This document shows, in pieces, positions 5,366-37,257 of a stretch of 64,000 nt of DNA. Source of the stretch: Bryobacterales bacterium (GTDB taxonomy: Bacteria; Acidobacteriota; Terriglobia; Bryobacterales; Bryobacteraceae); assembly GCA_963769205.1 (NCBI GenBank), contig CAVYKR010000004.1, positions 34,592-98,591 of the forward strand, written 5' to 3'. Numbering within the stretch: the first letter of the stretch is position 1; each line of letters opens with the position of its first letter. A program made the position numbers and the translations under genes. The notes under the pieces were generated by a model, which was not told where the DNA came from, made no database searches, and saw nothing but the letters and a program-made list of their open reading frames with translations.

Positions 5366-5456
5366 TTTGAAAATTTTATCACTACTCTCACGATTTAACC
5401 CGCAAATGAGAAGTTTTGATGCGATTTACCTACGCATTAAAATGGCCGCGCCGACT

Positions 5457-6798
5457 CTACAGCCTCTCCAGCCGCTCCCGGGCATCGCCAAACTGCTCCA
5501 GCTTCACGCCGAAACGATCCATCAGCGACAGGTACAGGCTGCACATCTTGCGTTTGTCCTCGCCCGCATCCAGATAGTTCAGCGTCCGTCCGGTTTCGAG
5601 CGTCCCGCCCAGTCCGCCGGCCAGCACCAGCGGCAATCTGAAATTGTCGTGCTTGCGGCCGATCCAGAGATTCGAAAGGAACATCAGGCAGGTATTGTCG
5701 AGCACCGTGCCATCGCCTTCCTTCATGCTGTCCAGCTTCGACGCCAGGTAGGCGTACTGGCTCACATGGAAGCGGGCGATGCGTTCGTATCCATCCGAGT
5801 TGTTGTTGTGCGACGCGGCATGATGCCCGTCCTTAACGTCCAGGAACGGATAATACATGGCCGAAAGATCGCGGGAGATGATCAGCGACGCGACGCGCGT
5901 CTTGTTAGTCTGAAATGCGATGGCGATGATGTCGCACATCAGGCGGGCGTGCTCGCGCAGGTCTTCCGGCAGTCCATTCGCCGGCCGGTCCATCGTGGCT
6001 GCTATCGTATTCTTCGCCTTGGCCGCAGTCGTCGGCCTGGTCTTTGCTTTTGCGCATCCCCTCGACGCGTTTTTCCACTTCGCGCACGCTGGTGAGATAC
6101 TCATCCAGCTTGCTCTTGTCGCCCGAGCTGATCTTGCGGTTCAGTTCTTCGGCGCGATCTTTCACGCGGTCGAGCAGACTCGAATTCAGCAGGCTGCCGC
6201 GGTTGTCGAACAGGTTGTCCCACGCCAGCGAAGGATAAACTTCCACCGGGACCGGCGAATCCGGAGTCTGCCAGGAGATATGCGAACTGTAGGCCAGCGA
6301 GAAGTTGGTCTCGTGATAGCCCGTCATGGGCTGATCGCATGCCAGCACGATGCTGGATTGCGGCGTATCTTCGCCGACGCGGTTGGCGATCATCTGATCC
6401 ACGCTGATGCCCGAGTGGATGATGGCGCCTTTGGAAATGTGCGCGCCCGACAGCAGGCTGCCCGTTTGCGCGGGGTGAATGCCCTGGCCGGTCAGCGCCT
6501 TGACGTACAGCCCATCGATCACATTGATTTTCTGTTTCAACGGCTCCAGCGGCTGCAGCGTCTTGCTGAGCTTCATCGCGGCGCCCGCGCCCTCGGCGCT
6601 CCAATGGTCTTCGTTGATGCCGCATCCCAGGAAAACGACGCCGAACCGTTTCGGGAACGCCGCCGGAGTGGCTGTATCGGCGAAAGCATCTAGCGACTCA
6701 AGCCACGGCAATGCCATGGTGCAGCCCATCCCCGCGAAGCACGGTGCGGCGGGAAAGGCGGGGTGCGTGGTTTTTGCTCGATGGGGCATCTTAATCAC
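5457..6798 (-). pseudogene. DUF1501 family protein with a frameshift
   Basis: ORFs 5905-6798 and 5457-6104 together match the N- and C-halves of the intact DUF1501 protein at 37258-38589 (KLDEYLTSVREVEKRVE... then ...DLREHARLMCDIIAIAFQTNKTRVASL). The frame switches near 6040-6080. Confidence 0.65.
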
Positions 6799-9700
6799 CT
6801 TCTTGATTGTAGCTCGGGCCGTTTCGCGCGTAAGTCAGGAACCCGCGTGTTCAGAAACTGCGGGCTTGTGACGATGGTCTCCACCAGCGCATCAAAGCGA
6901 TAATCTTCGGCCTGTAGCTTGGTCTTCATCCGTTCAATCACCGCTTCGTCGGAAAGCTGGAGCGAACGGTTCAGTGCATACGCGAGCAACTTACGGCTGA
7001 GATTATCCACGAAGTCGGCCTGGCGATGCTCGCGGATATAAGTCTCGACGCCCTCCACTCCCGGCGCCTTGGCTGCCGCCCGGAAAGACGGCCTTCGTAT
7101 CCACCGGCCGCCCTGCCAGATCATTGGTCCGCGCCTCGCCCACTGGTCCGTAGCCTTCAAACGCCAGACCGAACACGTCAAACCGCGCATGACAGCCAGC
7201 GCACACCGGATTCGAACGGTGCTTGGCCAGCATGTCGCGGAGCGGCAAGTCCGACTTCGCTTCGTCTGCCGGCAGTTCGGGAACGACCGGCGGCGGTGGA
7301 GGGATAATCTCGCCGAGAACCCGGTGGACTACCCAGTATCCTCGCTTTACCGGACTTGTTCTAAGGCCGGGCGAGTTTTGCGTGAGAAAGACCGCCATGG
7401 GTAGCAAGCCGCCGCGGCCGTACTTGTCGGCATCGTCCACGCGGACCCAAGTATCAGTGGTCCCCAGCCACGTCCGGCATCCCATAATGCTTCGCCAGGG
7501 CCGGATTCACAAACGTGTATTTGCCATACAGCATGTCGAGCACGGAGCGATCGTTGCGGACCATGTCCTCGATGAAACCGGACTGGTTCCTGAAACATGG
7601 CCTCGCGCAAATCGTTATTGAACGTGGGAAAGCGCTCCCGATCGACGGTGTTGTTGGTCTCGAAATGCCGGAAATCGAGCCAATTGCCCGCGAATTCCGT
7701 AGCCAGTCCGCGCGCTCGCGTCATCCTGCAGCATCCGCCGGGTTTCGCGCCAGCAATACATCTCGCTTTTCGAGATCGCCCGCGGCCGCGTGCCGCAACA
7801 GCTCGTCGTCGGGCATGCTGGACCATAGAAAATAGCTCAACCTGTTTGCCAGAGCGTAAGAAGATACCGGCCGGCTGGGGACCGCCGAAGAAAGTTTCGC
7901 CCCGGAGAATTTCGCCGCGTGATGGATAGACGATCCAGAGTGCTGTAACCCCGCGTCCAGAAGATCGATCCGGTACAGGAAATCGGGCGACATGAGCACG
8001 CCGGCAATCGATTCCCGCATGGCGTCTTCATGCGACAGGCCGTTCTTTTCTCGAAGGCGGTGGTAATACGTCACCACTTCGTCGCGATCGGCTTTTGTAA
8101 GCGGTCTCCGATAGGCGCGCGCGGCGAACCGCAGCAGCGCATCCAGATGCTTTGGCTCGGCCTCCGCATGCTCCTTCTCCAAGGCCCGCAAGGTGGCGTT
8201 GACGCCATCGAAGTGCGCCGCGGATTGCATCCGGAGCGACCGGGATCGTTCTGCGGATCAGCCAGAGCCTTGTCCAGATAGGCGTCCTTCAAGCCCATGA
8301 TGACCGGCTGGTCGGTGATCTCATGATCCAGCGGCCGCGCCGTGCCGGATTCAGCGCCCTTCCCTTGAACCTCGCCGCTCTGGTTAAAGAAATACTGAAT
8401 CCAGGTGCGAGCCGTGTAAGCCGGCGATGTAGTCGAATTCATTCCACAGGCGGTTGAGTTCCTTCTGGCCCTTTTCGTCGAGGATCAACTCCATGAGCGG
8501 CGTATCGTCGCGGAAATAACCCATGGTGTTGTGATAGCTCGCGCTTAGCAGACGTCCCTTGTCCTCCGAATCGTCCGGGAAATAACGGCCGCGCTCCTGT
8601 GACATAAAAAGTGTCCGGGAAAACCGAAGCAAAACGTGCAAACGCGGCTTCGTAGCGGCTTGCGCTCGGCGGCCGGCACCACCAGATCGGGATCGTCCGC
8701 GCGGGCTTTGGCCGAGAGAGCAGCCCAGCGCGGAGCGGCTTCCTGGTGGAGCCCCGGATACTCGGGATTTCGGGCACAACCGGCGGCGGATCGGTATCGT
8801 TCCGCAGATCCTTGCGGATCGCTATCGCGGCGATGCGAAGCGAACTCGCGCAGCTTCCAGTCCAGCAGGGCCTGCGATCCGGGCGGCAATCCCTTTACCA
8901 CCGGCGCGGCGAACTGCATGGCCGTGTGACTGCGGATCTTGACCACGAAATCGCGCATCTCGATGCATTTCGCTCTGCAGCCCGTCCTCCCCGCCTGAGC
9001 CCGGCGCCGGAAGTTCGCGCCACATCCGCTGCAGTTTCGCGATGGGACCAACCGCATCTTTCTCTTGCAGAATCCGCCACACCATCGGTAGATACTTGGC
9101 GCTGACCTTCGAATCCGCTGCGATGGACGCCAAGCTCGCCGCTGGCTTTCCCAGCGCGGCCCGATAACTGGAAGCGCCAGGCGGCCTGAAAATAATCCGC
9201 AAAATCGGTCGGCTGCCGGTGATAGAAGCTCACGATGCGCTGGATGGAATACTTGTCGCGATCCGTCTCCACCAGCATCGGATAGGCCGCGAAGTCGATT
9301 CCATCCGGGCGTCAGCACCATGTGATCCGCCACTCCGCGCGCGGCCTGCAGGTATTTATTCAGCAGCGCCGGACGACATCGTCAGCGATTCGCCGGAGTT
9401 GTCGAAGCCGGCCGTATTGGCCGGATCCACGGGAAACTCCCGCGCTGGGCTGCATATCCTGGCCGGTGAGGTCGCGAACGGTGTAGTCGTACTCGGCGTT
9501 GCTCAACCGGCGCGGCAGCACCAGTCCCGGATCGCCTGCACTTTTCCGCACCTCTTCCGCGCGTACGGCCTGAATCCAATCCATCACCTGCTCGCGGGCT
9601 TCCTCCGGCGGCGGCGGAACCGGCTTGGGAGGCATCTCCTTGCGCGGTCAGTCTCTCCAGCACCAGCGCCCAGCGCGGATAATCCCGGGTCACCATCTCC

Positions 9701-9885
9701 AGCGTGGAGTAGGCCTTCAGATCGAACTGTGCGGCCGGCGTTTGCCCGCTGTGGCACCCAACGCAATATTTTGCGACGAAAGGCCGGACGGTTTGCTGGA
9801 ACTGCCGGTCCAGTGCGGGTGCGGTGGCTCCCGGAGCGGGTAGGGCGGCCAACGCAAGTATGACGGGCAGGGCTCGAAACAGCAT
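6795..9885 (-). pseudogene. PSCyt1/DUF1587/DUF1592/DUF1588/DUF1585 family protein (planctomycete-type cytochrome-domain protein), fragmented by about 9 frameshifts
   Basis: Minus-strand ORFs 9382-9885 (signal peptide + CVGCHSG), 9360-9635 (LSNAEYDYTVRDL), 8545-9333, 8071-8442, 7721-8230 (LSYFLWSSMPDDELL), 7347-7826, 7003-7485 (CAGCHARFD) and 6795-7190 are collinear with the intact 816-aa paralog at 34824-37274. Confidence 0.7.
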
Positions 9886-9932
9886 AAGCTCATCAATATC
9901 ATACTGCGCCGGCGGTTTTCGGTTTTGGCTTA

Positions 9933-12342
9933 CTACTTCGGCCGCGCGATCGTAATGCTGTTCAACTCGTTGGCGCTGCCGATTTCCTTGGCGCCCGCCG
10001 GCAGGCCGTTCAGTTGAAATAGATACCCGACTATATCCAGAACAGTTTTCTCCGGAAGAGTGCCGGCGTCATTGGGAGGCATGGAGCTGATGATCGTGCT
10101 ATACAAAGCACGCGCCGCTTTCCCGTTCCACGCTGTCCAAAATGAATTGTCCTGCAGCACCGGCCCAAAGCCGTTTCCGTCATGGCAGGCCGCGCATTTC
10201 TCCTTGAAGACTGCCTCGCCGCGTTTGGCCTGAGCTGCAGTATAGATTGTCGGAGTGACGGCGTTATCGTCGATTCGTGCAGTCGCGTTGGTCAGGCTGA
10301 TACCCTCCGACGACGGCGCGACCGCCATTGCTACCCATCCGGCGCCGTAGCCTTTTCCGCCGATCGGTAGAACAATGTATTGCTTGCCGTTGGACAGATA
10401 AGTCACAGGACCGCCGGTAGTGCCGACCGGCAGTTCCTTTTCCCAGACCACCTGCCCAGTCGTCTTGTCATAGGCGCGAAATTTCGCCGCCCCAGGTATT
10501 CCAGCCCGTCCCATCACCGCATCGCTCGCCTCTCCTAAGAAAAAGAGGCTCTTGGTTACCAGCGGCGCCGGCCGGCCCGGCGTGCCGAGCGGAGGCAGAT
10601 GCAGGTCCTTGATCAACGGATGATCCCTCGGGCCGTCTCCGTTCGGAACCATCCACGCGATGGTGCCCTGGTTTAGATCGATCGCAGTGATTCGTCCGTA
10701 GGGTCCTTTATAAATCGGCAGCCCCTCGATGGCCAGTGCGCCGCCCTGCTGTTGTTGCCTTTGCCGTGGAGCGCCCGGCAGCGGACCCGTTCCATACAGC
10801 ATGGGATTCTTTGGGTCCGGGTTGGCGACCAATCCAAAGCTCCCCGCCTGTGTCATCGAAACCGCATAGTAAATACCAGTTTCAGGATCGAACGCCCCCG
10901 TGTTCCAGTTGCCTGCGCCCCAGCCGCCGGGCTGTACCAGCGTGCCCTTCTTGCCATCCGGCTCATCGCTGCGAACCGACGGCGGTGTAAACAGCGGACC
11001 CATCACGTAATGGCTCACCATCTCCAGCGCCTTCTTGTGCAATTCAGGCGTGTAGTCGATCAGATCTGCTTCGCTGAAGCCCTGACGGTCGAACGGCGGC
11101 GGCTTGGTCGGAAAGGGCTGCGTCGGCCAGGCTTCCTCGCCCGGAGCCGTCGATTTTGGTACCGGACGCTCCTCAATGGGCCACACCGGCTTGCCCGTTA
11201 CTCGATCGAATACGTACAAGAATGCAGTCTTATTGGATGCGATCACGGCTTTGATCCGCTTGCCATCCACCGTGATGTCCCCCAGAATCGGCGACGTGGC
11301 CGCATCGTACTCCCACAGATCGTGATGGATCAATTGGTAGTACCACACCAGTTTTCCAGTCTTGGTGTCCAGGCATACCAGGCTGTCGGAGTACAGATTT
11401 ATCCCGGGCCGGTGGCCGCCGTAATGCGAAGCCGTGGGTGCCGTTAGCGGGATGTAGACGTAACCTGTCTCTTCGTCCGCCGTCAGCGACGACCATGCCG
11501 CCATGTTGCCGACGTATTCCGCCGAGCCTTTACCCCAAGTGTCGTATCCGGGCTCTCCTTTTCGCGGCAAAATGTGGAACGTCCAAAGCTGCTTGCCGCG
11601 TCCGTACGTCAAAACCCCGGATATCCTCGGGCTCAGCTTTCGGATCGTACCCGCCGTCGCCGTATCCGCCGCTGGCCTTTCCGCCTCCATTGCCGCCGAT
11701 CACGATCACATCGTTTACGACGAATGGGCCCGGAAAGCCGAAGTACTTCGCCTCATCGAAAGTATGCCGGTTCAAAGAAATTCTGCCGTTTTCGCCGAAG
11801 TCTCGATTAGGCAGGCCGGTCTTGGCATTGATCGAATACAGATACTCCCCGCGTATCGAAACGATGCGCTCGTCCGCATCTTTGCGCCAATAAGCTACGC
11901 CTCGCGTGCTTTGCGCGGATGCCTCCTTCAACGTCGGTTCAACCGGCTGCTGCACCCACTTGGTTTTTCCATTCGCCGCGTCAAAAGCTTCGATCAATCC
12001 GACGCCGTCCGGTGCGTACAGCACTCCGTCGATCATGATGGGCGTTCCCCGGAAGTAGTTCGACGGGCTGAGATCAGGGAATTTATCCATGATGAGCGGA
12101 TCCACCGCCAGCCTGCGCCATACCACCTGGAGATTCTTTACGTTGTCACGATTAATCTGATCGAGTGGAGAGTATCTGGTGAAAGCCTTATCCCCGCCGT
12201 AGGTCCGCCAGTCGCCATTGGAGGATTTCGTGCGCGTGCTCGCTGCTGTGTCGCCGCTCGCGGCCTTGGGTTGAGCCTGGCCCAATGCAATCGTGCAGCC
12301 CGCGATCACTGCCGCTTTCATCCAGCTTTGAATCTTCATCAT
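9933..12342 (-). CDS. PQQ-dependent dehydrogenase (quinohemoprotein alcohol dehydrogenase-like; beta-propeller plus C-terminal cytochrome c) with one frameshift
   Basis: ORF 11530-12342 gives the signal peptide and first propeller blades. ORF 9933-11690 gives the rest plus a C-terminal CAACHDGNG heme site. The junction EDIRGFDVRT|GKQLWTFH is broken by a one-base insertion near 11615. Confidence 0.7.
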
Positions 12343-12378
12343 TCCTCCCTGTTGCTTCAGCCCGGCCAGCCTTCCTCT

Positions 12379-15300
12379 CTAGAATACGAGCTTAAGAGCG
12401 AGCTGTCCGATCCTCGAAGGGTTCGTTTGTGTCACTTGACCTATCAGCGCGGAGCGAACCGAAACCTGCCCCACCGGCGCCAGGAACTCGGTGTGGTTGA
12501 GGACGTTGAAGAATTCTGCCCGGAAGAGCAGCTTCACTCGCTCTCCCACCAGGTTCGTTCTCTTCTCCAGCGACAAGTCAAAGTTAGTCAGGCCGGGCCC
12601 GCGGAAAGTGTTGCGCTGTAGGTTGCCGTAAGTCGGCGCCGGGCATCCTCCGGGCGTTCCCGGCGGTGCGGTGCTCGCGTAGCAGGCGGGAATCACAAAA
12701 GCGCTCGGATCAAAGAAGAAATGGCCGGTTCGTTGCACTCCGTTCACCGTGAACGTCTCCACGCCGCGCGGGTCCAACGTGCTTTCGCTGCCGCCGGTCC
12801 AGTACGGCCGCACCAGCGCTGGAACACCGTCTCCTCCCGGACCGGGTACCGACGGACTGCGCGCCAGCCCTGAATTAAAGTCCACCGGAAAACCGGTTTG
12901 GGTGCTGAAGATCGGGTACAAACTCCACCCGCTGGTCAGCCGTTTCGGCCCCTTCTGCCAGAGATGCTCGAACGGAAGCTCCCACCCGCCGCTGAGTACG
13001 AACCGGTTGCGCACATCGTAAGCCGCCGGCGCATAAAACTGGTGCTGGTTGTAAGCGGAGATGGTCTGCAGGTATGCGTCCTGATCGCTCAATACTTTGG
13101 AAAAGGTGTAGGCCGCGGTAAAAAATGTTTCGCCGAAACGCGAGTTGCTGATCCGCTTCGTCAGGCTAGTCAACAGACCTTCGTAATTTGAGCTGCCCAA
13201 GGATTTGTCCACCGACATGTACGCGAACGCATTGGGATACTGCAACCCGGACTGGAGATTCAGCGGTCGCAGCGTTGTACCGGGGAAAAATGGGTTGTCC
13301 TCGACGTTAACAATCTGCTTATGGGAAGAACTGCCCACATATGCCACTTGCAGGCCCAGGCCGCTGCTGAGTGCCTGTTGCAGCGTTAGATTCCAGCCAT
13401 AGGTGTAAGGGTTTCGCTGATTGGGATCGATCAAAACGCTGTTGGGGCCGAATGGCAGAAACCCGGCCTTTTGAAAATTCAAACTCGGACTCAATGGCTT
13501 GGATGGAAATGGATTGATCACTCCGGCCGTTCCATAGGGATCGGACATGATCGTCGAAGGACCATTCGCCGGAACCATCGCCTTGGTAAACGTCAAGACT
13601 GCCGACGAGTAAAACGGCACGGTGCCATTCTGCCACTGCACATCCTGTCCATTCAGCACGTCGTAGAAGACGCCAAAGCCCCCGCGGATGCTGGTTCGCC
13701 CTTTGCCGAACGGATCATACGCGAACCCAAAGCGCGGCGCGAAATTGTTCTTGTCCGGGAAATATACGCCCGGACACGGCGCATGCGGATCGCACGGAAA
13801 ATTCAGACCCAATGGCGCCAGCGGAAATTTCGTCGATTGCTGCCCCGGAATAATCATATAATTCCGCTCTTGAGGATCGAACTTCGGCGTGTTGTATTCG
13901 TAGCGAAGGCCCAGCGTCAGCGTTAGATTCGGACGAATTTTCCATTCGTCCTGCCCGAAAGCGTTGTACTGGTGCCCGTGAGCCGCGCTGAACGCATTCG
14001 GCCACTGTGAAAAAGCATTGGGCAGGCCGAACAGAAAATCGGCCAGATCGTTGCCCGAGCCTATCCCTCCCGACGACGTGGGGCCGCTAAACGTCAGCGT
14101 GCCGTTCGTCTCATAGGCGAACTGCCCGTTGTTCTGCAGAATGGCGAACGATCCGCCGAATTTGAAATTGTGCCGGCCTTTGGTCCAGCTGACGTTGTCA
14201 GTCCAGAAGTAGGAAGTGTCCGCATACTTCCCGGGCACGCTGCCGCCGTTGTCTCCCAGCGTCAACCCGGCCACGCCAAACGAAACGATGGGTGGCGCGG
14301 TACTCAGATCCGGCGTAATCTGAAACCCGAGCGTTGGCGCTCCCGGCAGGCTGCTGGCATAGCCGCTCGTGCCCGTGACCACTCGTTGAGTCGTGAAGTG
14401 AGCTTCGTTCAAAAGAGCCGGCGTAATTACCGATGTCAATGTAATGCCGCCAAAATATTGGTCGGCAAGGCTCAACGTCGCATAGCCGGGAGCGGAGGCG
14501 CCCGGAAACGGATTCAACACTGGGTTGTGATTCCGGACCAGACTGATCGAAAGCCGCTCTTTCGGGCTGATGTTGAAATCCGTCTTCCCCAAAAACTCGT
14601 CGCGGTTGTCTTGAGCCGTTCCGTTGGGCGTCAGAATGCCGGTGGAACTCGTCGCGATCGGCGCGCCCGCGATAAAAGCTTTAGTCACCGGGTTGATCTT
14701 CGACGGATCAATGATGGCTTGCGAAGCCAGTTGCGAGTTCGATTGAAAATAGGGATGCGCCAGCAGGAATGCCGCTACGTTAGGATCGGGTCCGCCCTTC
14801 ACTGCTTGAGAGAAATCGCCGCCCAGTTCAGCCGGAGTGAAGGTGCCTATCTGGGGATTGACGGTCGTCGAATTCTGGCGTTGCCCCTGGTAGCCGATGA
14901 ACCAAAAGAAGCGATCCTTCCCGCTGACCACCTTCGGAATGCTGAGCGGTCCGCCCATCGTCACGCCAAATTGATTGCGGATCAACGTCGGCACCGGCGA
15001 ATAGTTGCCCGGCGTGCTCTGATTGAAGAAGTTGTTGGCGTTGAAATCCTTGTTCCGCAAATAGTCGTAAAGGCTGCCGTGAATTTCGTTAGTGCCCGAC
15101 TTCGTCACTACGTTCACGATGCCGCCGTTGCTGCGCCCATACTCGGCCGAATAGTTGTTCGTAAGAATCCGGAACTCATCGATCGTATCCGGATTCGGAT
15201 CCACCACCGCGGTGCCGTTCGAGACCGAGTTGTTGACGCCTCCATCCAGCATGTAGGTAACCGAGTTGGCGCGCGCCCCTGCGATGGAAAACCCATTTCC

Positions 15301-15825: not shown

Positions 15826-15965
15826 GCTGCCTCCTAATTTGCGTCTGGATCGTTCAACCCCGAGAACAATCGGACTGTAACGACAACCTGGTCTAGGAAC
15901 GTCCAGCATGTCGCATTGGTGAAGTACTTGTCAAGAAGTTCCGCCGATTTTTCCGGCCCTTCTCT

Positions 15966-16556: not shown

Positions 16557-16630
16557 GATTGCCTCCTGTTTGTCGTTGGACGCGCAGGAGCAGAAAAAGT
16601 CCCGGCCGGCTCTCCAGGACTGAAAGTCAA

Positions 16631-17365: not shown

Positions 17366-17400
17366 TCTTCCTAACCTCCCTCATCAGTTTATACAAGCGC

Positions 17401-20400: not shown

Positions 20401-20859
20401 CGATCCGCTGAAAATAATGAACCGCCGCGCCGCCGAGATTGGTTCTACGTCGAACCCGGAGGACCGCAGCCATCCGGCGATCTGTTCCACGTCGCCTTCC
20501 GATACGCCGAACCGCTCGCCGAATGCCTCGGGCGTGAGCCAGCGTTGATAATCCGGAGAGCTTAGATCCTGCTGCGCCGCCAGAAATTCTTCCAGGGCCT
20601 GTTCCTGAGCCGCATCCGGCTGCAGCACCAGTACCATGCGATCCATCCGCGTCTCCGCCGGCGCCCGGCCTTGTTCGTACTCCGCGCGCGCCAGCGGATG
20701 CACATCCCCGCCCCTTACCACCAGGTTGCGATTGTCAATGGATTCAGTAATTCGATTCGCGGCGCGGGTCTTTTCCTGTGCCACCGCTGCAAGACTCAAA
20801 AAGAGCAGAATGAAGATCAGGCCGACCAGTGGCCGTGAGATACTACGCAAGTATGCCAT
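17401..20859 (-). CDS. S53 (sedolisin/kumamolisin-type) serine peptidase with pro-domain and about 6 C-terminal tandem BACON/Ig-like repeats
   Basis: It has a signal peptide, a Pro-kumamolisin activation domain and an S53 catalytic region (SGTS...GGTS). Then ~90-aa units repeat: C.W.A....W......G.G.G.V.Y.V..N....R.G.ITV.G. Confidence 0.8.
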   Translation of the reverse strand: MAYLRSISRPLVGLIFILLFLSLAAVAQEKTRAANRITESIDNRNLVVRGGDVHPLARAEYEQGRAPAETRMDRMVLVLQPDAAQEQALEEFLAAQQDLSSPDYQRWLTPEAFGERFGVSEGDVEQIAGWLRSSGFDVEPISAARRFIIFSGSADQVAAAFHTEIHMYNVNGAKHYANQTAPRIPRALASVVRGVASLNDFHSTPLFAGLRAAPLAAAGGNRADWTNGSSHYLTPGDFGIIYDVASLYAGSTDGTGQSIAVIGRTNINLSDVQAFRSTFGLPTNNATVVLNGPNPGLVSGDETEAALDVEWAGATAPKAAVKLIASASTSASDGITLSAQYAVSNNLAPVITLSYGSCELALGTSGNQFWNSLWQQAAAQGITVLVAAGDSGSAGCDNPSSAKAVYGNSVNALCSSPYSTCVGGTQFSDSANPSLYWSTTNSSTYTSALKYIPEAVWNSSGSVTGGSGLWAGGGGSSAIYQKPLWQAGAGVPADGWRDVPDVSLTASSYDGYLIYMNGGFYVLGGTSASTPSFAGLMALAAQRKGTRLGNANPALYGFATRQAGGGAAVFHDITAGSDTVPGVTGFSAGVGYDRATGLGTVDAALLINHWNDAGGPAFQLSATPTSMTVTVGSSATTAVKLTASGGFNSPVTLSANSLPSGVTAAFSPATIPVGSSASTLTLSAATNAAPATFSFNISGNGGGVTNTLAVQTTVMQKCTYTISPTAANAVSAAAGYSVSVTAPAGCSWAAAPTATWISLSSGATGSGNGTVAYAVAANTATSPRSGSITVTGTGQSTPVTLTVSQAAAAFALGSTSASVAAAASTGSISVTAASSTATWTAVSSAAWVSITSGASGKGSQSVGYSVAANTGTTTRTGTVTVAGLTYTISQGGAACSYSVNPTSVTVGALGANYTVQVTTTPGCAWTAGSNSWTLNVISGASGSGNGVATYSVAPNTSSARSGTLTVAGKTVNVMQTAPAPGTPVFSLSPASASVSAPASTGIIAVTASVATANWTTVSNASWITVSSGTNQGNKNVGYTVAANTSPTPRTGTITVAGVAFTVSQAGVPCNGSVGSPTVVPNSAGFSMSFPVVIASGCSWTATSNQPWLTLTSGATGNGNGNAVYEAASNSTGAARTATVVIAGVTMNITESR

Positions 20860-21071
20860 TTGATCTTCATATCGGCGGTCGGGAAGCTTCAGAAGATCGA
20901 AAAGCTATGTAGTACTCAACCTCTTTTGTTGTAGCCAGATCGGAGCGACGGCGGTCCAGTACGAAAGACCCACTTTGACACAGTTCTTTCGGGCTACTCC
21001 CGGCAGTACCGACAACCCGTAAGTAACCCCCTTCCCCGCCCCCGCATCTCATCTATACAATTGGAGTCGAT

Positions 21072-22157
21072 GTGACCCTCACCCGCCGATGCCTGCTCAC
21101 TTCCGTCGCATTCGTTCCCGCCGCCCGCCTCCTGCGTGGCCAACAGCCTCCCTCCAACCCATCCGACGCCACCTTCTCTACCGAAGTCAAAGTGGTCATG
21201 GTGTTCGCCACCGTGCGCGACAAGCAAGGTACAGTTGTCCGCAATCTCACCAAAGACGACTTTGTTCTAGATGAAGACGGCCGGCCTCAAACCATCGGCT
21301 ATTTCTCCCAGGAAAGCAATCTGCCGCTCACCCTCGGCCTGCTGATCGACACTAGCGGTAGTACCCGCCGCGTTCTTCCCGATGAGCGCGATGCCAGCTA
21401 CAAATTTCTCCAGCAGGTGCTGCGCGAGGACAAGGACCAGGCGTTTCTCATTCATTTCGATCTCGAAGTAGAGCTGTTGCAGGATCTCACCTCTTCGCGC
21501 GCTCAGCTCGAAAAGGCGTTGAACCAGCTCGGAACGGCAGCGGGCCAGCGGCCGCAAATGTCCAGGCGCAATGGCGGCTCTTACCCCGGTGGTGGTGGCG
21601 GAGGCCAGTATCCCGGCGGCGGAGGTGGAGGCGGACGCCGTCGAGGAGGCACATCCCTCTATGACGCCGTATTTCTCGCCTCCGACGAGTTGATGAAGAA
21701 GCAGACCGGCCGGAAATCGCTCATCCTTCTCTCGGACGGCGTAGATAACGGCAGCCGGCTGACGCTTTCCGAATGCGTGGAATCGGCCCAGCGAGCCGAC
21801 ACCCTCGTCTATTCCATTCTCTTCGACGATCCGGAAGCCAACAACTTCGTTGGCTTTGGCGGCCCGGGCATGGGCCGGCATGGCGGATACGGCGGCGGTC
21901 GCAGACCCCAGATGAACCGTCCCGATGGAAAGAAAGTGCTGGAGCAGATCTCGCGCCAGACCGGCGGCCGCTTTTTCGAGGTCTCGAAGAAACAGCCCAT
22001 CGACAGGGTGTTCGCCGCCATCGAAGAAGATCTGCGCAATCAGTACAGCCTCGGCTATACACCCACTGCCGCCTCGCCAGGTTATCGCAGCATCCACCTG
22101 GCAGCCAAGCCGAAAAATCTTACCGTTCAGGCGCGCGAAGGATATTACGCACTGTAA
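21072..22157 (+). CDS. VWFA-related acidobacterial domain protein (TIGR03436-like), Gly-rich insert
   Basis: The N-terminus is characteristic (FSTEVKVVMVFATVRDKQGTVVRNLTKDDFVLDEDGRPQTI), it has a VWA MIDAS-like LLIDTSGS, and it ends ...REGYYAL. Confidence 0.75.
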   Translation: MTLTRRCLLTSVAFVPAARLLRGQQPPSNPSDATFSTEVKVVMVFATVRDKQGTVVRNLTKDDFVLDEDGRPQTIGYFSQESNLPLTLGLLIDTSGSTRRVLPDERDASYKFLQQVLREDKDQAFLIHFDLEVELLQDLTSSRAQLEKALNQLGTAAGQRPQMSRRNGGSYPGGGGGGQYPGGGGGGGRRRGGTSLYDAVFLASDELMKKQTGRKSLILLSDGVDNGSRLTLSECVESAQRADTLVYSILFDDPEANNFVGFGGPGMGRHGGYGGGRRPQMNRPDGKKVLEQISRQTGGRFFEVSKKQPIDRVFAAIEEDLRNQYSLGYTPTAASPGYRSIHLAAKPKNLTVQAREGYYAL

Positions 22158-22204
22158 GAATTCTGGCACTAACGCTTGAGCCTCGGCATGCGTCTTAACT
22201 TCCA

Positions 22205-23055
22205 ATGACAAGAATTCCTGTTGGCGCCAGTCTCGCGCTATTGACGGCCATTGGACTCTTCGGCCAGTCCAGCACCACGCCTCTCACCTTCGAAGTGGCA
22301 TCCATCAAACCGAGCAATGCCGATCTGCACCGCATCATGTTTCAGTTGCAGCCGGGCGGTGGCCTCCGAACCAGCGGCACCACGTTGAAAATGCTTCTCG
22401 CCTTTGCCTACGACGTCCGCGACGTCCAAATTTCAGGCGGCCCTGGCTGGATCAATACCGATCGCTTCGATGTAGTGGCGAAAGCAGGCGGCGCTGTTCC
22501 CGAAACTCCTGATGACCCGCGCAAAATGACGGACGAACAGCGCAAGACCGTCGGTGATCAAGCTCGGGAACGTCTCCGGGCCCTGCTAGCCGAGCGGTTT
22601 CAGTTAACCCTCCATCGTGAAGCCAAAGAACAATCGATCTACGCCCTGGTGGTCGCAAAAAACGGCCCTAAGCTCAAGGAATCTCAAGCACAGGTGGGCG
22701 ACGGCCCCAAAGGCCGGATGATGATGGGTCGCGGCCAGCTTTCCGGACAGGGCGTGCCACTGGAGCTGTTGACTAAGACACTATCCGACCAACTCGGCCG
22801 GCCCGTGATCGATCGCACCGGCCTGAAAGGGAATTTCGATTTCAAGCTGGAGTGGACGCCCGATCCCGGCCAGGGCGGCGGCGGTCCATTCGGCGGCGGG
22901 CCACCACCCGGCTGGATGCTCCACCCCCGCCCGATCCCAACGGCCCTTCGGTCTTCACCGCCCTTCAGGAGCAGCTCGGGCTCCGCTTGGAATCGCAGAA
23001 AGGTCCGGTAGAGATGCTGGTGATAGACCAAGTGGAGAAACCGACCGAAAACTAA
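22205..23055 (+). CDS. TIGR03435-like soil-associated family protein; C-terminus frameshifted
   Basis: It matches the intact paralog at 54817-55566 (FEVASIKPS... / ...FTALQEQLGLRLESQKGPVEMLVIDQVEKPTEN). The C-terminus is in ORF 22852-23055, a different frame, after a Gly-rich run. Confidence 0.65.
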
Positions 23056-23078
23056 CCCCGCGCAAGATTAGCGGTGCG

Positions 23079-26000
23079 ATGGCCAGCAAGCCCATCTTCG
23101 ATTGTCTGCGATACCTCGCCGTCGCCGCGCTCACCGCCCTTCTGCTCTGCGCCGCCGAGCACCATGGACAGGTAAAATTCGGCGGCTTGCCGGTCCCCGG
23201 CGCCACCGTGACCGCGACCCAGGCTGGCAAAATCTTCACCGCGATCACCGATCCGCGAAGGCGCATATTCTTTCCCCGATCTTCGCGGACGGTACCTGGA
23301 CCATTCAGATCGACATGCCGGGTTTTGCAGCGTTCCATCAGGACCTTGAAGTCGCGCGCGATGCGCCCGCCTCCGAATGGAATCTGCGCATGCTGCCTCT
23401 GAACGAAATGCATGCCGTCGCAGCGCCTCCTCCGGCTGCCGTCCTGCCGGCGCCTGCTCCCGCCGCCAATGCTGCTGAACCCGCCAGACCGAAGCCCCGC
23501 AATGCGAAAAATACCCCGCCGCCGCCCACCAACACGCCGACCGCCTTCCAACGGACCGACCTGAATGCCGCCAACCCGCCCGCCCCGGCTCCCGGAACAC
23601 CGTCGCAGCCCGATGCGACCATCCCCAGTACCGATGCATTCGCAAATCAAAACCCGTCCGAGCTCAGCCAGCGCGCCGCCGACGGTTTCCTCATCAACGG
23701 TACTGCCAACAATGCCGCCAGTTCGCCCTTCGCAATGGCGCAGGCCTTCGGCAACAGCCGAAAAGACTCCCGGTCCTGTATAACGGCAACCTCGGTCTCA
23801 TCTTCGATAACTCGTCCCTCGATGCCCGGCCATTTTCGCTGACCGGACAGGACACGCCGCGGCCCGACTACAACCATATCCAGGGCGTGTTCGCCTTCGG
23901 CGGTCCTATCAAGATTCCGCGCCTGCTCCGCAACGGCCCCAACCTCTTCATCAACTACCAATGGACCCGGAATCGCAATGCCAGCGTCGGAACCGGCCTC
24001 ATGCCCGACGCAGCCGAACGCAGCGGAGATTTCTCGCAGGTATTGAACGCGCAGGGTCAGCCCGTCCAGATTATCGATCCCGCAACCGGATCGCCTGTTC
24101 CCGGCAATCGCCTCGCACTCAGCCAGATCAGCCCCCAGGCCTTGGCGTTGTTGAACTTTTATCCGCTCCCCAATTTTCAGGGCGGAACGCGCTACAACTA
24201 TCAGATCCCCATTCTCGGCGTCACTCACCAGGACAGCCTGCAAACACGTCTCAATAAAACCATCGGACGAAAAAACCAGGTTTCCGGAATGTTCGCTCTG
24301 CAGATCCACTCGCTCGGACAATCCCAATCTGTTCGGATTTCTCGACACCAGCAACGTGCTCGGAATCAACCTGAACACAAATTGGCGCCATTACTTCACG
24401 CCGCGATTCTTCATCAACCTCGGTTACCAGTTCAGCCGCAGTTCATCGCGCTTCACGCCCTATTTCGAGAACCGCTCAGAATGTGTCGGGCCTGGCCGGA
24501 ATCTCGGGCAATAATCAGGAGCCAGGGAACTGGGGGCCACCCGACCTCACATTCGCCTCCGGATTCTCGGGCCTGTCCGACGGGCTGCCGGCCTTCACCC
24601 GTAATCAGACCAGCGGCGTATCGATGGATAATTTCTGGTCTCGCGGCGCGTCACAACATCTCTTATGGAGGTGACTTTCGCCGCCAGCAGTTCAACCTGC
24701 TCTCCCAGCAGGACCCTCGCGGCAGCTTCGCCTTCACCGGCGCGGCGGCCGGATACGATTTCGCCGGATTTCTTCTCGGCGTGCCCGATACCAGCTCCAT
24801 CGCCTTCGGCAACGCCGACAAATATTTCCGCGCATCCACGTCCGACGCCTATATCAACGACGATTGGAGAATGAATCCCGGCTTCACCTTGAACTTCGGC
24901 GTTCGCTGGGAGTACTGGTCGCCCATCACAGAAAAATACGGCCGCCTCGTGAATCTCGACATCGCCCCCGGTTTCACCGCCGAAGCTCCCGTGGTTGCCG
25001 GCCACCCCACCGGTCGCCTCACTGGCCAAGCTTATCCGGATTCGCTGATCCATCCCGACAAAGGCGCGGTTCAACCTCGTGTTGCTTTTTCCTGGCGGCC
25101 CCTTCCGGCGTCCTCCCTGGTGGTTCGCGCCGGTTACGGCGTCTACTACAACACTTCCGTGTACCTGCCCATCGCCACTCAAATGGCCCAGCAATATCCG
25201 TTGTCGAAAAGCCTCAGTGTGCAAAGCACGCCCGGCAATCTCGCTATCGCTCGCCGACGGCTTCAATGCCTCTCCTGGAATCACGCCGAATACCTACGGG
25301 GTTGATCCGCAATTTCCGCATCGGCTACTCGCAGAACTGGCAGATGTCCGTGCAGCGCGATCTGCCGAAAGCCCTGGTCGCCACCATTTTGTATCTCGGC
25401 AGCAAGGGAACCCACGAAATGCAGGAGTTTCTGCCCAACACATATCCTGCCGGCGCCGAATCCTTGTCCCGCCTGCCCCAGTCGGATTTGTGTATCTCGT
25501 CTCCAACGGAAACGCCGCCCGCAACGCCGGCCAGATCCAATTGCGCCGCCGCTTGCAGAGCGGATTTACCGCGAGCCTCAATTACACCTTCTCGAAATCC
25601 ATCGACGATGGCGCGCTGGGCGGAAGGAATCAGGGCGGCTATCTGATCGCTCAGAACTGGCTGAATCTCAACGCCGAGCGAGCGCCTGTCGAATTTCGAT
25701 CAGCGCCACCAGCTGAGTGTGCAGGCCCAGTACACCACCGGCATGGGAATTCACGGCGGCACACTGGTGAACGGATGGAAGGGCGCGCTCTTCAAGGAAT
25801 GGACCGTCGCCAGCCAGATCACTGCCGCCACCGGAATGCCGCTCACGCCCGTCGATTTCGCGGCCGTCGCCGGCACCGGCGTGACCGGAAGCATCCGTCC
25901 CGAGTACACCGGCGCGCCGCTCTACAACGCACCTGCCGGGCTCTTCCTGAATCCAGCCGCCTACGCCGCGCCTCCCCCGGGCCAGTGGGGCAATGCCGGC

Positions 26001-26229
26001 CGCAACTCCATCACCGGCCCCTCGCAGTTCACCCTCAACGCTTCTCTCGGACGCGCCTTCCGGCTGACGGAGCGATTCGGTCTCGACTTTCGCGTAGACG
26101 CGACCAATGCGCTCAACCACGTCACCTTTCCGAGTTGGAACACCACCTTTAACAGCTCGCAGTTCGGGTTGCCGAATGCCGCCAATGCCATGCGCAGCTT
26201 GCAGACCAGCGCTGCGCTTGAGGTTCTGA
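23079..26229 (+). pseudogene. TonB-dependent receptor-like outer-membrane protein (carboxypeptidase-regulatory-like N-terminus) with multiple frameshifts
   Basis: Successive ORFs 23079-, 23102-, 23887-25305, 25079-, 25719- carry receptor-like sequence (signal peptide, GQVKFGGLPVPGATVTA, DGTWTIQIDMPGF, ...YSQNWQMSVQRDL..., NHVTFPSWNTTF). The true C-terminus ...LRLRF* is in yet another frame and ends at 26229. Confidence 0.65.
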
Positions 26230-26232
26230 CCC

Positions 26233-28336
26233 ATGCGATCTCTTCTTGCCATCTTCCTCTCGTTCGTTCTCGCCGCCGCGCGCAGCAGATCGGACAAAAC
26301 ACATCGTCTCCTTCCGCCGCCGCGCCTACTTTCCAAAGCAACAGCCAATTGGTGATCGAGACCGTCTCGGTAAAGACCAAGGATGGCAAGCCGGTCGAAA
26401 ACCTGACCGCCAAGCGATTTCACCGTCACCGAAGATGGCGCGCCGCAGACCATCCGGTTTTTCGAATATCAAAAACTGCAGGAAGTTGCGCCCGATGCCG
26501 CCGACGCGGCTCCATCTTCGCGTGCTGCGCCGTTCCCTAAACTGCCCAAGAGCCAGATCACGCCCGAATCGCCCGGTAGCGTGAAGTATCAGGACCGTCG
26601 TCTGCTGGCGCTCTATTTCGACATGAGCGCCATGCCGGAGCCCGATCAGTTGCGCGCCTTCACCGCCGCGCGCAACTTCATCCAAACGCAAATGACGCCA
26701 TCCGATCTGGTGGCCCTCATGGTTTACCAGTCCGGCGCCGTGCAGATCTTGCAGGATTTCACCGCTGATCGCGACCGTCTGCTCAGCATCGTCGAAACCC
26801 TGGTGGTAGGCGAAGACCAGAATTCCGCTGACGCCGCCAACGACGCTATCTGCTGCCGACACCGGCGCTGCCTTCGGCCAGGATGATTCGGAATTCAACA
26901 TCTTTAATACCGACCGCCAGTTGTCCGCTCTGCAGACTGCCGCGAAGATGCTGGGTGCGCTGAGCGAGAAGAAGGCGCTCATCTATTTCGCCAGCGGGCT
27001 GCGCCTGAACGGCGTCGACAATCAGGCGCAATTGCACGCCACCATCAATGCCGCTATACGAGCCGGCGTTTCGTTCTGGCCTATCGACGCGCGCGGCCTC
27101 GTTGCTCAAGCGCCCCTGGGCGACGCTACTCACGGTTCGCCCGGCGGAATCGCCATGTACAACGGGGCCTCCGCTATGGCCGCCCAAGATAGCTTTCAGC
27201 GCTCCCAGGACACTCTCTGGGCGCTTGGCCGCCGATACCGGTGGCAAGGCTCTGCTCGACTACAACGACCTCACCAAAGGCATGACCGCAAGCTCAGCAG
27301 GCCATTTCGAGTTACTACCTCATCGGTTACTACGCCAGCAACGCTGCGCTGGACGGCAAATTCCGCCGCATCAAGATTTCGCTCGCCAACGGCCTCGCTG
27401 CCACCATCGACTACCGCCAGGGTTACTTCGCCGGCAAGCAGTTCGGGAAATTTTCGGCAGCCGAAAAGGAGCGCCAGCTTGAGGACGCGCTGCTGCTGGG
27501 CGATCCGATCACCGAACTTACCGTCGCCGTTGAAGTGGATTATTTCCAGCTCAACCGTGCCGAGTACTTCGTGCCGCTGATAGTCAAGGTCCCCGGCAGC
27601 GAGCTGGCTCTCGCCAAGCGCGGCGGCGCCGAGCACACCCTGCTCGATTTCATCGGCGAAATCAAAGATGACTTTGGCACCACCGTCTCCAACGTGCGCG
27701 ACAAAGTGGATATCAAGCTGAGCGACGCCACCGCCGCCGAATTGGCCAAGCGGCCCATTCAATATGACACCGGATTCACGCTGCTTCCCGGCAAGTACAA
27801 GATCAAGTTCCTGGCGCGCGACGCCGAGACTGGCCGCATCGGCACCTACGAAACTCCCTTCGTGATCCCCAATCTGAACAAGGAAGACAAGCGCATCCCG
27901 ATCAGTTCGGTAGTCTTGAGCAGCCAGCGCGTGGAGCTGAAAGATGCGCTGTACAATGCCGCCAAAGATAAAGGCAAGGCCGAAATTGTCAATCCACTGG
28001 TACAAGAAGGCCAGAAGCTGATTCCCAGCGTGACGCGAGTCTTCAGCAAAGGCCGCGATATGTACGTCTACTTGCAGGCCTATCAACCGGGCGTCGAGAG
28101 CGCGCAGCCGCTGGTGGCGTTCGTCACGTTCTATCGTGGCCAAGCCAAGGCGTTCGAGACGCCGCCGCTCCAGGTAACTGAGGCGCTGAATAATCGGTTG
28201 AAGACTATGCCCCTCAAATTCAGCCTCTCGCTCGCTAAGCTCCCGCCCGGCCACTATAACTGCCAGGTGACGATTCTCGATCCGAGCGGGTCAGAAAGCC
28301 GCGTTCTGGCAAGCGCCCGTCATGCTGATCCCGTAG
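26233..28336 (+). pseudogene. second VWFA-related acidobacterial domain protein (TIGR03436-like), about 5 frameshifts
   Basis: It starts MRSLLAIFLSFVLAAAR 4 nt after the upstream stop. Its sequence (SNSQLVIETVSVKTKDGKPVENLTAK, VKYQDRRLLALYFDMSAM, ALIYFASGLRLNGVDNQ, FVPLIVKVPG..., final AAFWQAPVMLIP*) is distributed over ORFs 26246-, 26581-, 26921-, 27535-. Confidence 0.65.
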
Positions 28337-28341
28337 AGGCG

Positions 28342-30510
28342 CTACGGCAACCCAAAGACATACAACGCCTGGCCGCTCTGCGGGATCTTGATGTCCGGCG
28401 CGATCGCCGCCGGCACATTTCGCGGGCTGCCGCCGCCCAGCCCGGTCATCACCGCGATGTACTGCTTTCCATCCACGCTGTAGGTAACCGGGAAGCCCTG
28501 CACCGACGTGCCTAGCCGCGTTTCCCACAACATCTGTCCGGTCTTCACGTCCAGAATGTGCACGCCGCGGTTGATGTCGCCGACCAGCACCCAGCCGCCG
28601 GCGGTCGAAAGCGCGGCCGTGAGGAACGGCGCGCGCTGCTCGTATTTCCAGACCTCGTTCATGGTCTTCACATCGTAAGCCGCCAGCTTGCCGATGTTGC
28701 CATTGCTGCCCGGCATCGGCAGGAATTTGCGGTCGCCGCCCGACCCTCCGCCCCTGCCGCTGAAGTCCACCTCGCGCGCCGTAAAATCCATGCACGACTG
28801 GCTGAGCGGAACGATCAGCAGTCCCGTCGGCTGGATTGTAGCTCATCGCCTGCCAGTTCTTCCCGCCTTCCGTGCTGGGACACACATTGATCGGCTTATT
28901 GAGTCTGCATCTCAAGAATGTCCGTCCGATACCTCGGCGTTCCCGTCTTGGGATCGATGTGGTCCCACACCGTCTGCTTCACCATCTCCTTGCTGCCGAG
29001 ATATTGTCCCGGTCCGCCGATCCAGCTTCCACAGGATGCCCGCCTTGCCGGCGTTGAACGAAACTTTCTGATCGCCGATATCGACCAGCACGCGCTCGAA
29101 TACTTCGTCCAGATCGAACGACTCGCCCGGCGCATGCTGGAAATACCAGACCAGTTTGCCCGTGTCCGGATTCAGCGCCACCGTCGAGTTCGCGTAAAGA
29201 GTCTTATCGAACGGCGTCAGCTTGCGGCTCAGGAAATTCCAGGGCTTCGATTGCGCGACGCCCCAGTACGTAATGTTGAGCTCGGGATCGTAGCTTCCCG
29301 CCAGCCAGGTCTCCGCGCCCGCGCGATTGTTCATCGGCAGATTGCCCCATGTTTCGCTGCCGGGCTGCCCTTCGCGCGGAATCGTGTAGAACCGCCAAGC
29401 CCGCTGCCCGGTGTGGATGTCGAAAGCGGAAATGTAGCAGCCTTCGCCGTCGAAACGCGCGCAGCCCGTCAGACCCATCAGCACTTTGTCGCCGATGACG
29501 ATCGTCGCCGCTGGTGGAAACATGCGGCTTGTCGGAAGCCGGCGTGTCCCAGAGAATCTGCCCGTTGCGCGCATTGATCGCCACCATGTGCGCGTCGCTG
29601 GTGGGCAGAAAAACCTTGTCTTCGGCGATCGCGATGCTGCGGATGCCGCCGTATCCCGGCGCCTGATCCGGACCCACGCGCGTCTCCCAGATCAGATCGC
29701 CCGTCTTGCGCATCCAGCGCCTGAACAATGTTGCTGGGGCTCGCCAGATAAATGATGCCGTTGTGCACGATCGGCGTGGTCTGGTTCGCCCCCGAGTCGT
29801 TCATCGCCCAGGTCCACTTCAACTGCAGGTTCTTGACGTTGTCGCGCGTGATCTGATTGAGCGGACTGTAGCTGTGTCTCTGATAATTGCGTCCGAAGAT
29901 CAGCCAGTCCTCCGCGGGCGGATTCCTGAAGCATTTCGGTCGTCACCGGAACATAGTTCTTGACCTCGCCCGGCACGTTGACGCCAGCGTTGCCGCCAGC
30001 ACCGCCGCGTCCGTCTACCCGTGCCAGCGCCCACCACCATCGACCCGCCGCCCCGTCCGCCGCGCCCTTGAGCCGGTGCATTCGCCGGCCGGCGCCTGCC
30101 CGTTGGCAACCGCCCGGATTAACGTGGAGACACTTCCCGCGAGTGCCTGCTGGCCCGCCTGAGCGCCGTTGCGCTGCAGAATATATGCGGTCGCGTTCAG
30201 CGCCGCCGCTTCGCCCAGCGATCCCGGATTCGTGGGCGGCATCGTTTGCAGGATCTCGCCGAATAGCTCGCTCACCATCTTGGGCCCCCACTTGAGCAGG
30301 AACGTGCCCCCCGACAAGCGCCGGCGCATCGCCCGAGCCTTCGAAGTTCGCGCCGTGACAAGCCGAACAATTCTGATCGTAAATGGCCCGCCCGGACTGA
30401 GCCTGCGCGGCGGTAAAAATGCCCGCGGGCTGGGCCCAAACCAAGCCAAAGGTCGCTGCTCCAAACGCAGTGAGCGCGAACAATCGAGAAGGTAGTGCTA
30501 AACGATGCAT
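28342..30510 (-). pseudogene. second PQQ-dependent dehydrogenase with N-terminal cytochrome c domain, heavily frameshifted
   Basis: ORF 29692-30510 has a signal peptide and a CSACHG heme site. PQQ propeller pieces follow in ORFs 29478-29822, 29204-29728, 28912-29574 (GCYISAFDIHTGQRAWRFYTIP), 28235-28915 and 28342-28791 ([14 protein letters not shown]... C-terminus). Confidence 0.65.
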
Positions 30511-30655
30511 GCCGGATCTCCTACACCAAATGCCTGAGCATCATAATTATACGATGGTGAAGCCACGCATCATTAACCTGTTCCTTCTGGCCGCTTCCGG
30601 AGCCGCGCGGCTTTCCGCGTGATATCCTTAGCTCCAATAACAGAAGGATGATTCT

Positions 30656-31195: not shown

Positions 31196-31211
31196 TCTTT
31201 CGAGGTGAAGT

Positions 31212-32789: not shown

Positions 32790-32806
32790 TACGTGCCTCC
32801 ATCGGC

Positions 32807-33967: not shown

Positions 33968-34102
33968 GCCCTTAATCATGACCCACAAATAACCCTTTCT
34001 GTTCGCATTTTATTCTCAATCCTTTCACAGCTCATCCCGAGGCTACCCACATCCAATGAGTGAAAGCAAAACGCAACAACTAAGAAATGGAGAACAAGAA
34101 AG

Positions 34103-34750: not shown

Positions 34751-34823
34751 ACCCCTAACGCTAAGCCTGATATAATGCACTTGTCCGGAAGGCACTACGA
34801 ATCCCGGCTGATGGGAGGGTGAA

Positions 34824-37257
<2,434 letters not shown>

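Follow-up and report, generated by a model that had tools for sequence, protein, structure and literature searches.

Frameshift-dense genes in a Bryobacterales contig probably reflect local consensus errors

The pseudogenes of Mycobacterium leprae and of recent host-restricted pathogens carry nonsense codons, varied deletions, IS insertions and elevated non-synonymous change. PacBio continuous-long-read noise, stretches of single-read depth and gap fills in hybrid or metagenome assemblies are characterised by insertion-dominated, positionally random errors. In long-read assemblies, gene-fragmenting indels have been documented, and the published residual consensus errors are mostly associated with homopolymers, with C or G deletions in GC-rich genomes (Kastor, PMC12007338; ARAMIS, PMC8574707). 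Here, we analysed a 64 kb stretch (the window) of a contig that is public (NCBI, ENA), unannotated and 274,777 bp long, in which a run of genes shows disrupted frames. The locus resembles M. leprae-type pseudogene clusters in that many neighbouring genes are affected, but it shows none of their nonsense codons, varied deletions, IS insertions or elevated non-synonymous change. With the errors of long-read or poorly polished assemblies it shares disruption by frameshift only, a disregard for gene boundaries, a large share of genes resembling pseudogenes, and the recovery of full-length, ortholog-like genes by single-base correction; it differs from the published residual errors because 87% of the indels are insertions, homopolymers are avoided and the sites are confined to two kilobase-scale patches instead of being evenly spread. 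Raw PacBio-like noise or single-read stretches would match the insertion-dominated, random and Poisson-spaced character of the indels and a patch size of about one read, whereas the depletion of neighbour-matching insertions observed here is no established property of such noise.

A codon-usage frame model confirmed that the dense frame disruption reported in a preliminary description of this DNA is real, nearly all frame switches falling within 5464-9943 and 22221-30309. Altogether, the seven broken genes hold 52 tiny indels, of which 45 are insertions of a single base and 7 are deletions of one or two bases; they are distributed over two patches and a lone site (Table 1); the patch lengths, 3.6 and 7.4 kb, are each about that of one long read. 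The preliminary description had counted at least twelve broken genes, but twelve is the total for 5457-30510, of which seven are broken and five intact. Its estimate of about nine pieces for the DUF1592-type gene was an undercount, as this gene carries 18 frameshifts, and the label DUF1501 given to the adjacent gene has to be replaced by HXXSHH/DUF1552, the ortholog of this gene at locus L022 matching Pfam PF07586. For the one-base insertion that it had resolved in PQQ1, where the Pfam PQQ profile is divided over two ORFs (1-199 and 200-595), the context ACG-C-GGC-AAG was exact but the position is 11598 and not 11615. The segment from 12.4 to 21 kb is indeed intact as described, and the five genes of 12379-22157, VWFA-1 included, are all single ORFs. 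Broken frames are, however, not limited to 5457-30510: other frameshifts lie at ~42100, ~41140 and ~568 and probable additional ones at ~306 and ~45300, with the result that roughly a quarter of the genes in the window appear broken. At the start of the window, a broken gene (1-662) is only 26% identical to its in-window paralog, which is too distant for placing the shifts. An Rfam scan of the whole window returned no matches.

Table 1. Genes and indel-dense patches between positions 5457 and 30510 of the window
Feature	Position (nt)	Strand	State	Details
HXXSHH/DUF1552-family gene	5457-6798	-	broken	3 window-specific indels: +1 at 6027, +1 at ~6729, -1 at ~6781
PSD/PSCyt3 (DUF1592/DUF1588-type) gene	6795-9885	-	broken	18 indels: 17 single-base insertions, 1 single-base deletion at ~8760
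PQQ1, PQQ-dependent dehydrogenase with C-terminal cytochrome c domain	9933-12342	-	broken	single +1 at 11598 (ACG-C-GGC)
TonB-type receptor	12379-15909		intact	single ORF, full-length Pfam match
DinB	15966-16556		intact	single ORF, full-length Pfam match
3-keto-disaccharide hydrolase/DUF1080	16631-17365		intact	single ORF, full-length Pfam match
S53 peptidase with BACON domains	17401-20859		intact	single ORF, full-length Pfam match
VWFA-1	21072-22157		intact	single ORF, full-length Pfam match
TIGR03435/DUF3738-family gene	22205-23052	+	broken	one single-base deletion at ~22912
CarboxypepD_reg + OMP_b-brl_4 outer-membrane barrel (TonB-receptor-like; domains assigned by Pfam)	23079-26229	+	broken	12 indels: ten +1, -1 at ~23775, -2 at ~25456
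Acidobacterial VWFA (TIGR03436) gene (family assigned by NCBIfam)	26233-28336	+	broken	6 indels: five +1, -1 at ~26277
PQQ2, cytochrome c + PQQ-type beta-propeller dehydrogenase	28342-30510	-	broken	11 indels: ten +1, -1 at ~29986
Putatively error-dense patch A	6027-9642			21 small indels over 3.6 kb, spaced 181 nt apart on average (CV 0.91)
Putatively error-dense patch B	22912-30318			30 small indels over 7.4 kb, spaced 255 nt apart on average (CV 0.91)

The broken genes were then compared with syntenic metagenome contigs of related Bryobacteraceae (77-87% nucleotide identity, the nearest orthologs at ~85%). All seven are intact in the orthologous loci examined, and the shared breaks that the preliminary description had linked to ancient pseudogenes were not found in these loci. 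Multi-alignment with the syntenic contigs revealed 44 insertions of one base and 6 deletions of one or two bases that are unique to the window, and in the aligned orthologs no gene-internal indel other than multiples of three; the +1 at 11598 and the -1 at ~22912 fall outside this tally. Single-base correction restored full-length ORFs colinear with the orthologs in 7/7 genes, and once the stray bases are removed, 5079 codons can be aligned over their full length to intact orthologs, with no in-frame stop. Larger gene-internal differences specific to the window are all in-frame (multiples of 3, at most 12 nt). In a frameshift-aware alignment, the DUF1552 gene is 93.0% identical to its intact L022 ortholog over 442 aa. 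The DUF1592-type gene, in which the window-unique one-base insertions span 7060 to 9642, reaches 86.4% against the intact P0001 (1047 aa), and identities to intact L024 orthologs are 85.1% for the outer-membrane barrel gene (1053 aa), 89.1% for the broken VWFA gene (699 aa) and 89.5% for PQQ2 (734 aa); none of these five genes contains an in-frame stop. PQQ1 is 85-88% identical to the intact P0241, P0121 and P0122 with its one +1, and the TIGR03435 gene is 73.5% identical to its L024 ortholog with one -1.

Divergence does not set the broken genes apart. Protein identity to orthologs is 73.5-93% for the repaired genes versus 80-96% for intact neighbours compared with the same contigs, nucleotide identity is 85.1-85.7% for broken genes versus 84.0-84.4% for the adjacent intact esterase, and no excess divergence over intact neighbours was detectable, with power to see an excess of ~1% or more. 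Substitutions on the window branch are distributed over codon positions as 45/38/225 and 147/99/481, a retained third-position bias that matches that of the orthologs and of the intact control; the power of these tests is limited, since a further 0.5-1% of substitutions in the patches would be invisible against a branch divergence of ~7%. For the S53 peptidase, a scan of reference genomes yielded only relatives at ≤57% identity and without synteny, which are of no use for orthology, and frameshift counts in its orthologs in relatives (protein-to-DNA, ~55% identity) are noisy at the variable C-terminus and are qualitative only. A conspecific independent assembly was not found.

The indels bear a distinct signature. 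Insertions outnumber deletions 6:1 (binomial P = 7e-8 for 45:7), and no frame-breaking indel exceeds 2 nt. The inserted base equals a neighbouring base in 10 of 45 cases (22%) when 21 would be expected (P about 0.0005), 34 of 44 insertions are not in any run, and neither a common sequence motif nor a +/-2 repeat pattern was found at the insertions. Slippage mutation would enrich neighbour-matching insertions, and their depletion therefore counts toward an artefact. Anchored on the orthologs, the insertions occupy the three codon-phase slots uniformly (19:13:12). We also considered that both alleles of a strain polymorphism had been kept in the consensus, but this predicts sites beside third codon positions and was rejected on the basis of the uniform slots.

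The sites show a Poisson-like spacing and cross gene boundaries and both strands, patch B spanning four genes. They follow two physical stretches of the contig and not individual genes: over its terminal ~570 nt the DUF1552 gene is free of indels, and PQQ1 holds only one. Between the two patches lies the block 12379-22157, in which alignment with loci L044 and L024 revealed no gene-internal indel of a length other than a multiple of three. The 19.3 kb of flanking and intervening coding sequence assessed contain zero frame-breaking indels, an outcome with a probability of ~5e-40 at the rate of the dense patches. The clustering of indels far exceeds chance.

Judging from these sequence comparisons, the broken genes are probably an artefact, namely a local consensus error of the deposited contig (probability close to 0.9), and in the organism itself all seven most likely remain intact, working genes. 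Two stretches (~6.0-9.7 kb and 22.9-30.3 kb) together with scattered single sites would hold uncorrected consensus errors, nearly all of them spurious single extra bases at roughly one per 200-250 nt. In a draft or metagenome-assembled contig, such stretches would most likely be backed by a very small number of noisy long reads, or have been gap-filled or left without polishing. Local assembly indel errors were one of two alternatives offered by the preliminary description and are strongly supported by the insertion excess and by the absence of stops in the repaired codons. Among contigs with MFD-prefixed isolate names, which we take to be long-read MAGs, two loci show a similar excess of frame switches (patchy in L014), and this excess is absent from the comparison contigs that are presumably short-read assemblies. 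We infer a technical origin of the indels. Insertion-dominated and homopolymer-avoiding at about 60% GC, their signature nevertheless departs from published residual consensus errors and lacks the homopolymer association and deletion excess typical of residual Nanopore, HiFi or high-coverage PacBio errors.

The other alternative offered, decay under relaxed selection, holds that the seven genes are genuine pseudogenes, drifting neutrally because further members of their families make them redundant. The disruption of seven adjacent genes would suit decay, as would the presence of same-family genes at 34824-38589 and 54820-55584 of the window and the large genomes and expanded paralog families found in the Bryobacteraceae/Solibacter-like clade. 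The supposed redundant copies are, however, only 30-38% identical at the protein level in the DUF1592, DUF1552 and TIGR03435 pairs, and the two VWFA genes do not match each other at E<=1e-3; the in-window paralogs possess their own orthologs in relatives (91-94% identical), where both copies are intact on one contig. A random substitution creates a stop in about 3.1% of cases, and bacteria usually accumulate 5-10 substitutions per indel in mutation-accumulation studies, so that 52 indels imply 8-16 nonsense codons, against none in the repaired genes. Bacterial pseudogenes have a known deletional bias, which is opposite to the 45:7 ratio, and neither large deletions nor IS elements occur here. 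As the broken genes also could not be distinguished from genes under selection by divergence or codon-position pattern, decay is unsupported and, in our view, highly improbable.

The extra bases could also be real, a tract-limited, insertion-biased and homopolymer-avoiding burst having recently inactivated seven conserved genes with no detectable substitution excess; we give this about as little credence as decay and know of no described mutational process of this type. A more specific version, a very recent burst of single-base insertions by a localised process acting on two 4-7 kb tracts, appears to us slightly less probable still. Error-prone long-patch repair, recombination-associated synthesis and repeated Ku/LigD end-joining with single-nucleotide addition are its candidates, and the patch sizes are indeed like repair or recombination tracts. 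Yet ~50 independent end-joining events within 11 kb are implausible, and non-templated addition predicts a neighbour match of ~47%, templated fill-in even more, when 22% is observed. The lack of a detectable substitution excess would agree with such a burst, but to our knowledge no polymerase or repair pathway yields +1 insertions at about 0.5% without also raising the number of substitutions. A very recent lineage-specific event would also be compatible with nearest orthologs that are only about 85% identical, and the signature is unlike textbook long-read consensus errors; the extra frameshifts elsewhere in the window point instead to general sequence quality. Finally, the genes could be expressed despite the extra bases by programmed ribosomal frameshifting, transcriptional slippage or RNA-level deletion editing, and since the repaired frames are fully conserved, such a correcting mechanism would give normal proteins. 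But with up to 18 sites per gene, random in codon phase and sharing neither a motif nor a slippery or homopolymer context, and with the same proteins encoded by single uninterrupted ORFs in the orthologs, recoding has a negligible probability, and no system of this sort is known to us in bacteria.

If the indels are consensus errors, the contig would deserve a quality flag, since gene calling would turn about one in four genes of the 64 kb window into apparent pseudogenes or fragmented ORFs. One such fragment, the 523-aa P0176, already sits in public protein collections with 100% identity. Correctors centred on homopolymers would overlook the patchy +1, homopolymer-avoiding signature, which may for this reason interest builders of polishing tools. 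The error signature itself says nothing new on biology. Studies that draw on this assembly to assess gene loss, the load of pseudogenes or the redundancy of paralogs in the acidobacterial lineage concerned would be misled.

The window's long intact ORFs served to train a codon-usage model of all six frames, with which same-strand frame switches were mapped. Nearly all fell within 5464-9943 and 22221-30309, with a further switch near 11617 and none in 12413-22152 or 30639-39877. The preliminary description was thus right about disrupted frames and an intact middle block, but 7 of the 12 genes within 5457-30510 are broken, not at least twelve, and the gene labeled DUF1501 belongs to the HXXSHH/DUF1552 family. 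In the first PQQ-type dehydrogenase (PQQ1), ORFs 11530-12342 and 9933-11690 each hold part of the Pfam profile, which is divided at positions 199/200; the gene's break is a single one-base insertion as described, although at 11598 and not 11615.

Features of the window and alignments of relatives' contigs (L-numbers) to it
Feature	Window position (strand)	Identity to intact ortholog	Indels
HXXSHH/DUF1552 gene	5457-6798	93.0%	3
DUF1592/DUF1588-type gene, its partner	6795-9885	86.4%	18
PQQ-type dehydrogenase, PQQ1	9933-12342	87.9%	1
TIGR03435/DUF3738 protein	22205-23052	73.5%	1
CarboxypepD_reg + OMP_b-brl_4 barrel	23079-26229	85.1%	12
TIGR03436 VWFA protein	26233-28336	89.1%	6
PQQ-type dehydrogenase, PQQ2	28342-30510	89.5%	11
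Intact DUF1592-type + DUF1552 pair	34824-38589
Two-domain glyoxalase/VOC gene, running off window start	1-662 (+)
Two tandem paralogs	40912-42866 (minus)
Phenol_MetA_deg-type outer-membrane protein	44538-45555 (minus)
Two long overlapping ORFs	61120-62899 (+)
L021 and L022, aligned	4226-9906
L024, aligned	21043-30447
L025, aligned	22206-26955 and 32802-40013
L026, aligned	22206-30446 and 32802-40013
L044, aligned	17400-32277

Because identity between the in-window paralogs and the broken genes is only 30-38%, and neither VWFA gene matches the other at E<=1e-3, orthologs were sought instead. The DUF1592-type gene, conceptually repaired, has more than 100 intact full-length homologs (best ~82-86% identical), on contigs locally syntenic with the window (DUF1592-type gene, then HXXSHH, one or several other genes, and an esterase). 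Querying metagenomes with the barrel protein, likewise repaired, yielded contigs that align to the window at 77-87% nucleotide identity over many kb. In the relatives, each of the seven genes forms one uninterrupted ORF, so that the shared breaks envisaged for orthologous loci do not exist there; PQQ1 orthologs (801-804 aa) include one on a contig also bearing the TonB-type neighbour. In L021 (8206-10001), one 351-aa gene lies between the DUF1592-type gene and a nearby DUF1080 hydrolase; in the window (9933-16556), PQQ1, a TonB-type receptor and DinB lie between them, and the TonB-PQQ1 pair is conserved on another contig, L104. At window 33983-34766, ~740 nt are missing from L025 and L026, including segment 34098-34745, predicted to be coding and located between conserved genes.

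Multiple DNA alignments were used to tell window-specific changes from those of the relatives. Over 5457-9906, 19 one-base insertions and two one-base deletions are unique to the window, and neither ortholog has any gene-internal indel other than multiples of three. Over 22205-30447, we counted 25 window-unique one-base insertions and four gene-internal deletions of 1-2 nt, with essentially no gene-internal indel other than multiples of three in three orthologs. A custom frameshift-tolerant protein-to-DNA aligner, run gene by gene, gave the same picture, the seven genes totaling 45 one-base insertions and 7 deletions (P = 7e-8 for the surplus of insertions). Larger window-specific differences within genes are all in frame (multiples of three, up to 12 nt). 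With the same methods, the controls (the intact esterase, 17400-22150, 30618-32277 and 32802-40013) show no such indel within genes.

Inserted bases equal a neighbouring base in 10 of 45 cases, whereas random bases placed at random sites would do so in about 21 (P about 0.0005). The spurious insertions tend not to form homopolymers, an unusual signature for errors and one that homopolymer-focused polishers would leave in place; the depletion could be a residue of run-length-aware consensus or polishing. Sites are uniform over codon phase (19:13:12), Poisson-like in spacing (CV 0.91) and extend over four genes and both strands, their density tracking two physical stretches (3.6 and 7.4 kb) and not particular genes.

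Between the two explanations originally offered, we favour local assembly indel errors, and give a probability of about 0.88 to the broken frames being a technical artefact. Ordinary pseudogenisation, mutation followed by neutral decay under relaxed selection, appears very unlikely: nucleotide identity to orthologs is 85.1-85.7% for broken genes versus 84.0-84.4% for the adjacent intact esterase, and, intact genes being 80-96% identical in protein to the same contigs, the broken ones show no detectable extra divergence, in a test blind to an excess below about 1%. Along the window branch, substitutions also remain strongly concentrated at third codon positions (45/38/225 and 147/99/481). In bacteria, each indel is usually accompanied by 5-10 substitutions, and in genes like these about 3.1% of random substitutions produce a stop, so that 8-16 stops are due with 52 neutral indels; none occurs in frame across the 5079 aligned codons of the seven repaired genes.

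Bacterial pseudogenes are moreover deletion-biased, whereas the spectrum here is inverted, and slippage would enrich neighbour-base matches, whose depletion has no mutational rationale; nor do sites respect codon phase, gene boundaries or strand. A real burst of insertions of some unknown kind seems slightly less credible still, and recoding is negligible. The premise of redundancy does not hold either: the pair of intact DUF1592-type and DUF1552 genes, taken for a spare copy, has its own 91-94% identical orthologs, and the single contig L026 carries these along with undamaged orthologs of the window's disrupted barrel, VWFA and PQQ2 genes.

A crude count of frame switches across the relatives' contigs gave ~0.1 per kb in those presumed to be short-read assemblies. 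It was much higher in two of the loci with MFD-prefixed isolate names, presumably long-read MAGs from the same clade (related Terriglobia/Bryobacterales): 0.75 per kb in L019, and in L014 8 events over 7 kb. For the error reading, this excess is supportive only. Frame switches are dense over L019 1743-20916 and, patchily, L014 4278-11289, and in the S53 gene of both loci -1 events outnumber +1. Residual errors of Nanopore/PacBio assemblies are mainly homopolymer-associated and, in GC-rich genomes, mainly deletions (PMC12007338; PMC8574707). In contrast, the window signature is +1, outside homopolymers and patchy, and looks more like raw insertion noise (near-single-read depth) or gap fill than systematic consensus error.

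Broken frames also occur outside the reported region, as the glyoxalase/VOC gene changes frame at ~568 (the Pfam Glyoxalase domain being uninterrupted over this junction in a stitched translation) and probably again at ~306. The tandem paralogs, conserved '...TLVVDTTNF...YEYACHEGN' proteins of unknown function, carry one frameshift each (+1 at ~42100, -1 at ~41140), only 7 residues apart in alignment to an L008 homolog, which may be chance, or the trace of local misjoining or conversion involving the two copies. In the Phenol_MetA_deg-type gene, signal peptide and barrel domain lie in different frames, and the switch at ~45300 is probably another single-base error. The two long ORFs, both of unknown function, share ~250 nt that each reads in its own frame, and coding potential switches at ~62009. 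They may represent either a single frameshifted gene or two genes; no Pfam family matches the stitched protein. The ~2 kb at 49630-51671 match no Rfam family and lack convincing coding potential; the only ORFs there are small, such as 50423-50692 (minus; 89-aa product rich in lysine and alanine).

The window's proteins appear in the public protein collection solely as unnamed products of one 274,777-bp contig (NCBI, ENA), among them a 523-aa cut-off PQQ1 fragment, consistent with a draft or metagenome-assembled genome that lacks annotation. Altogether, the broken frames are real as sequence but very probably absent from the organism itself, and their value is as a flag on the assembly and on the fragmentary proteins derived from it.
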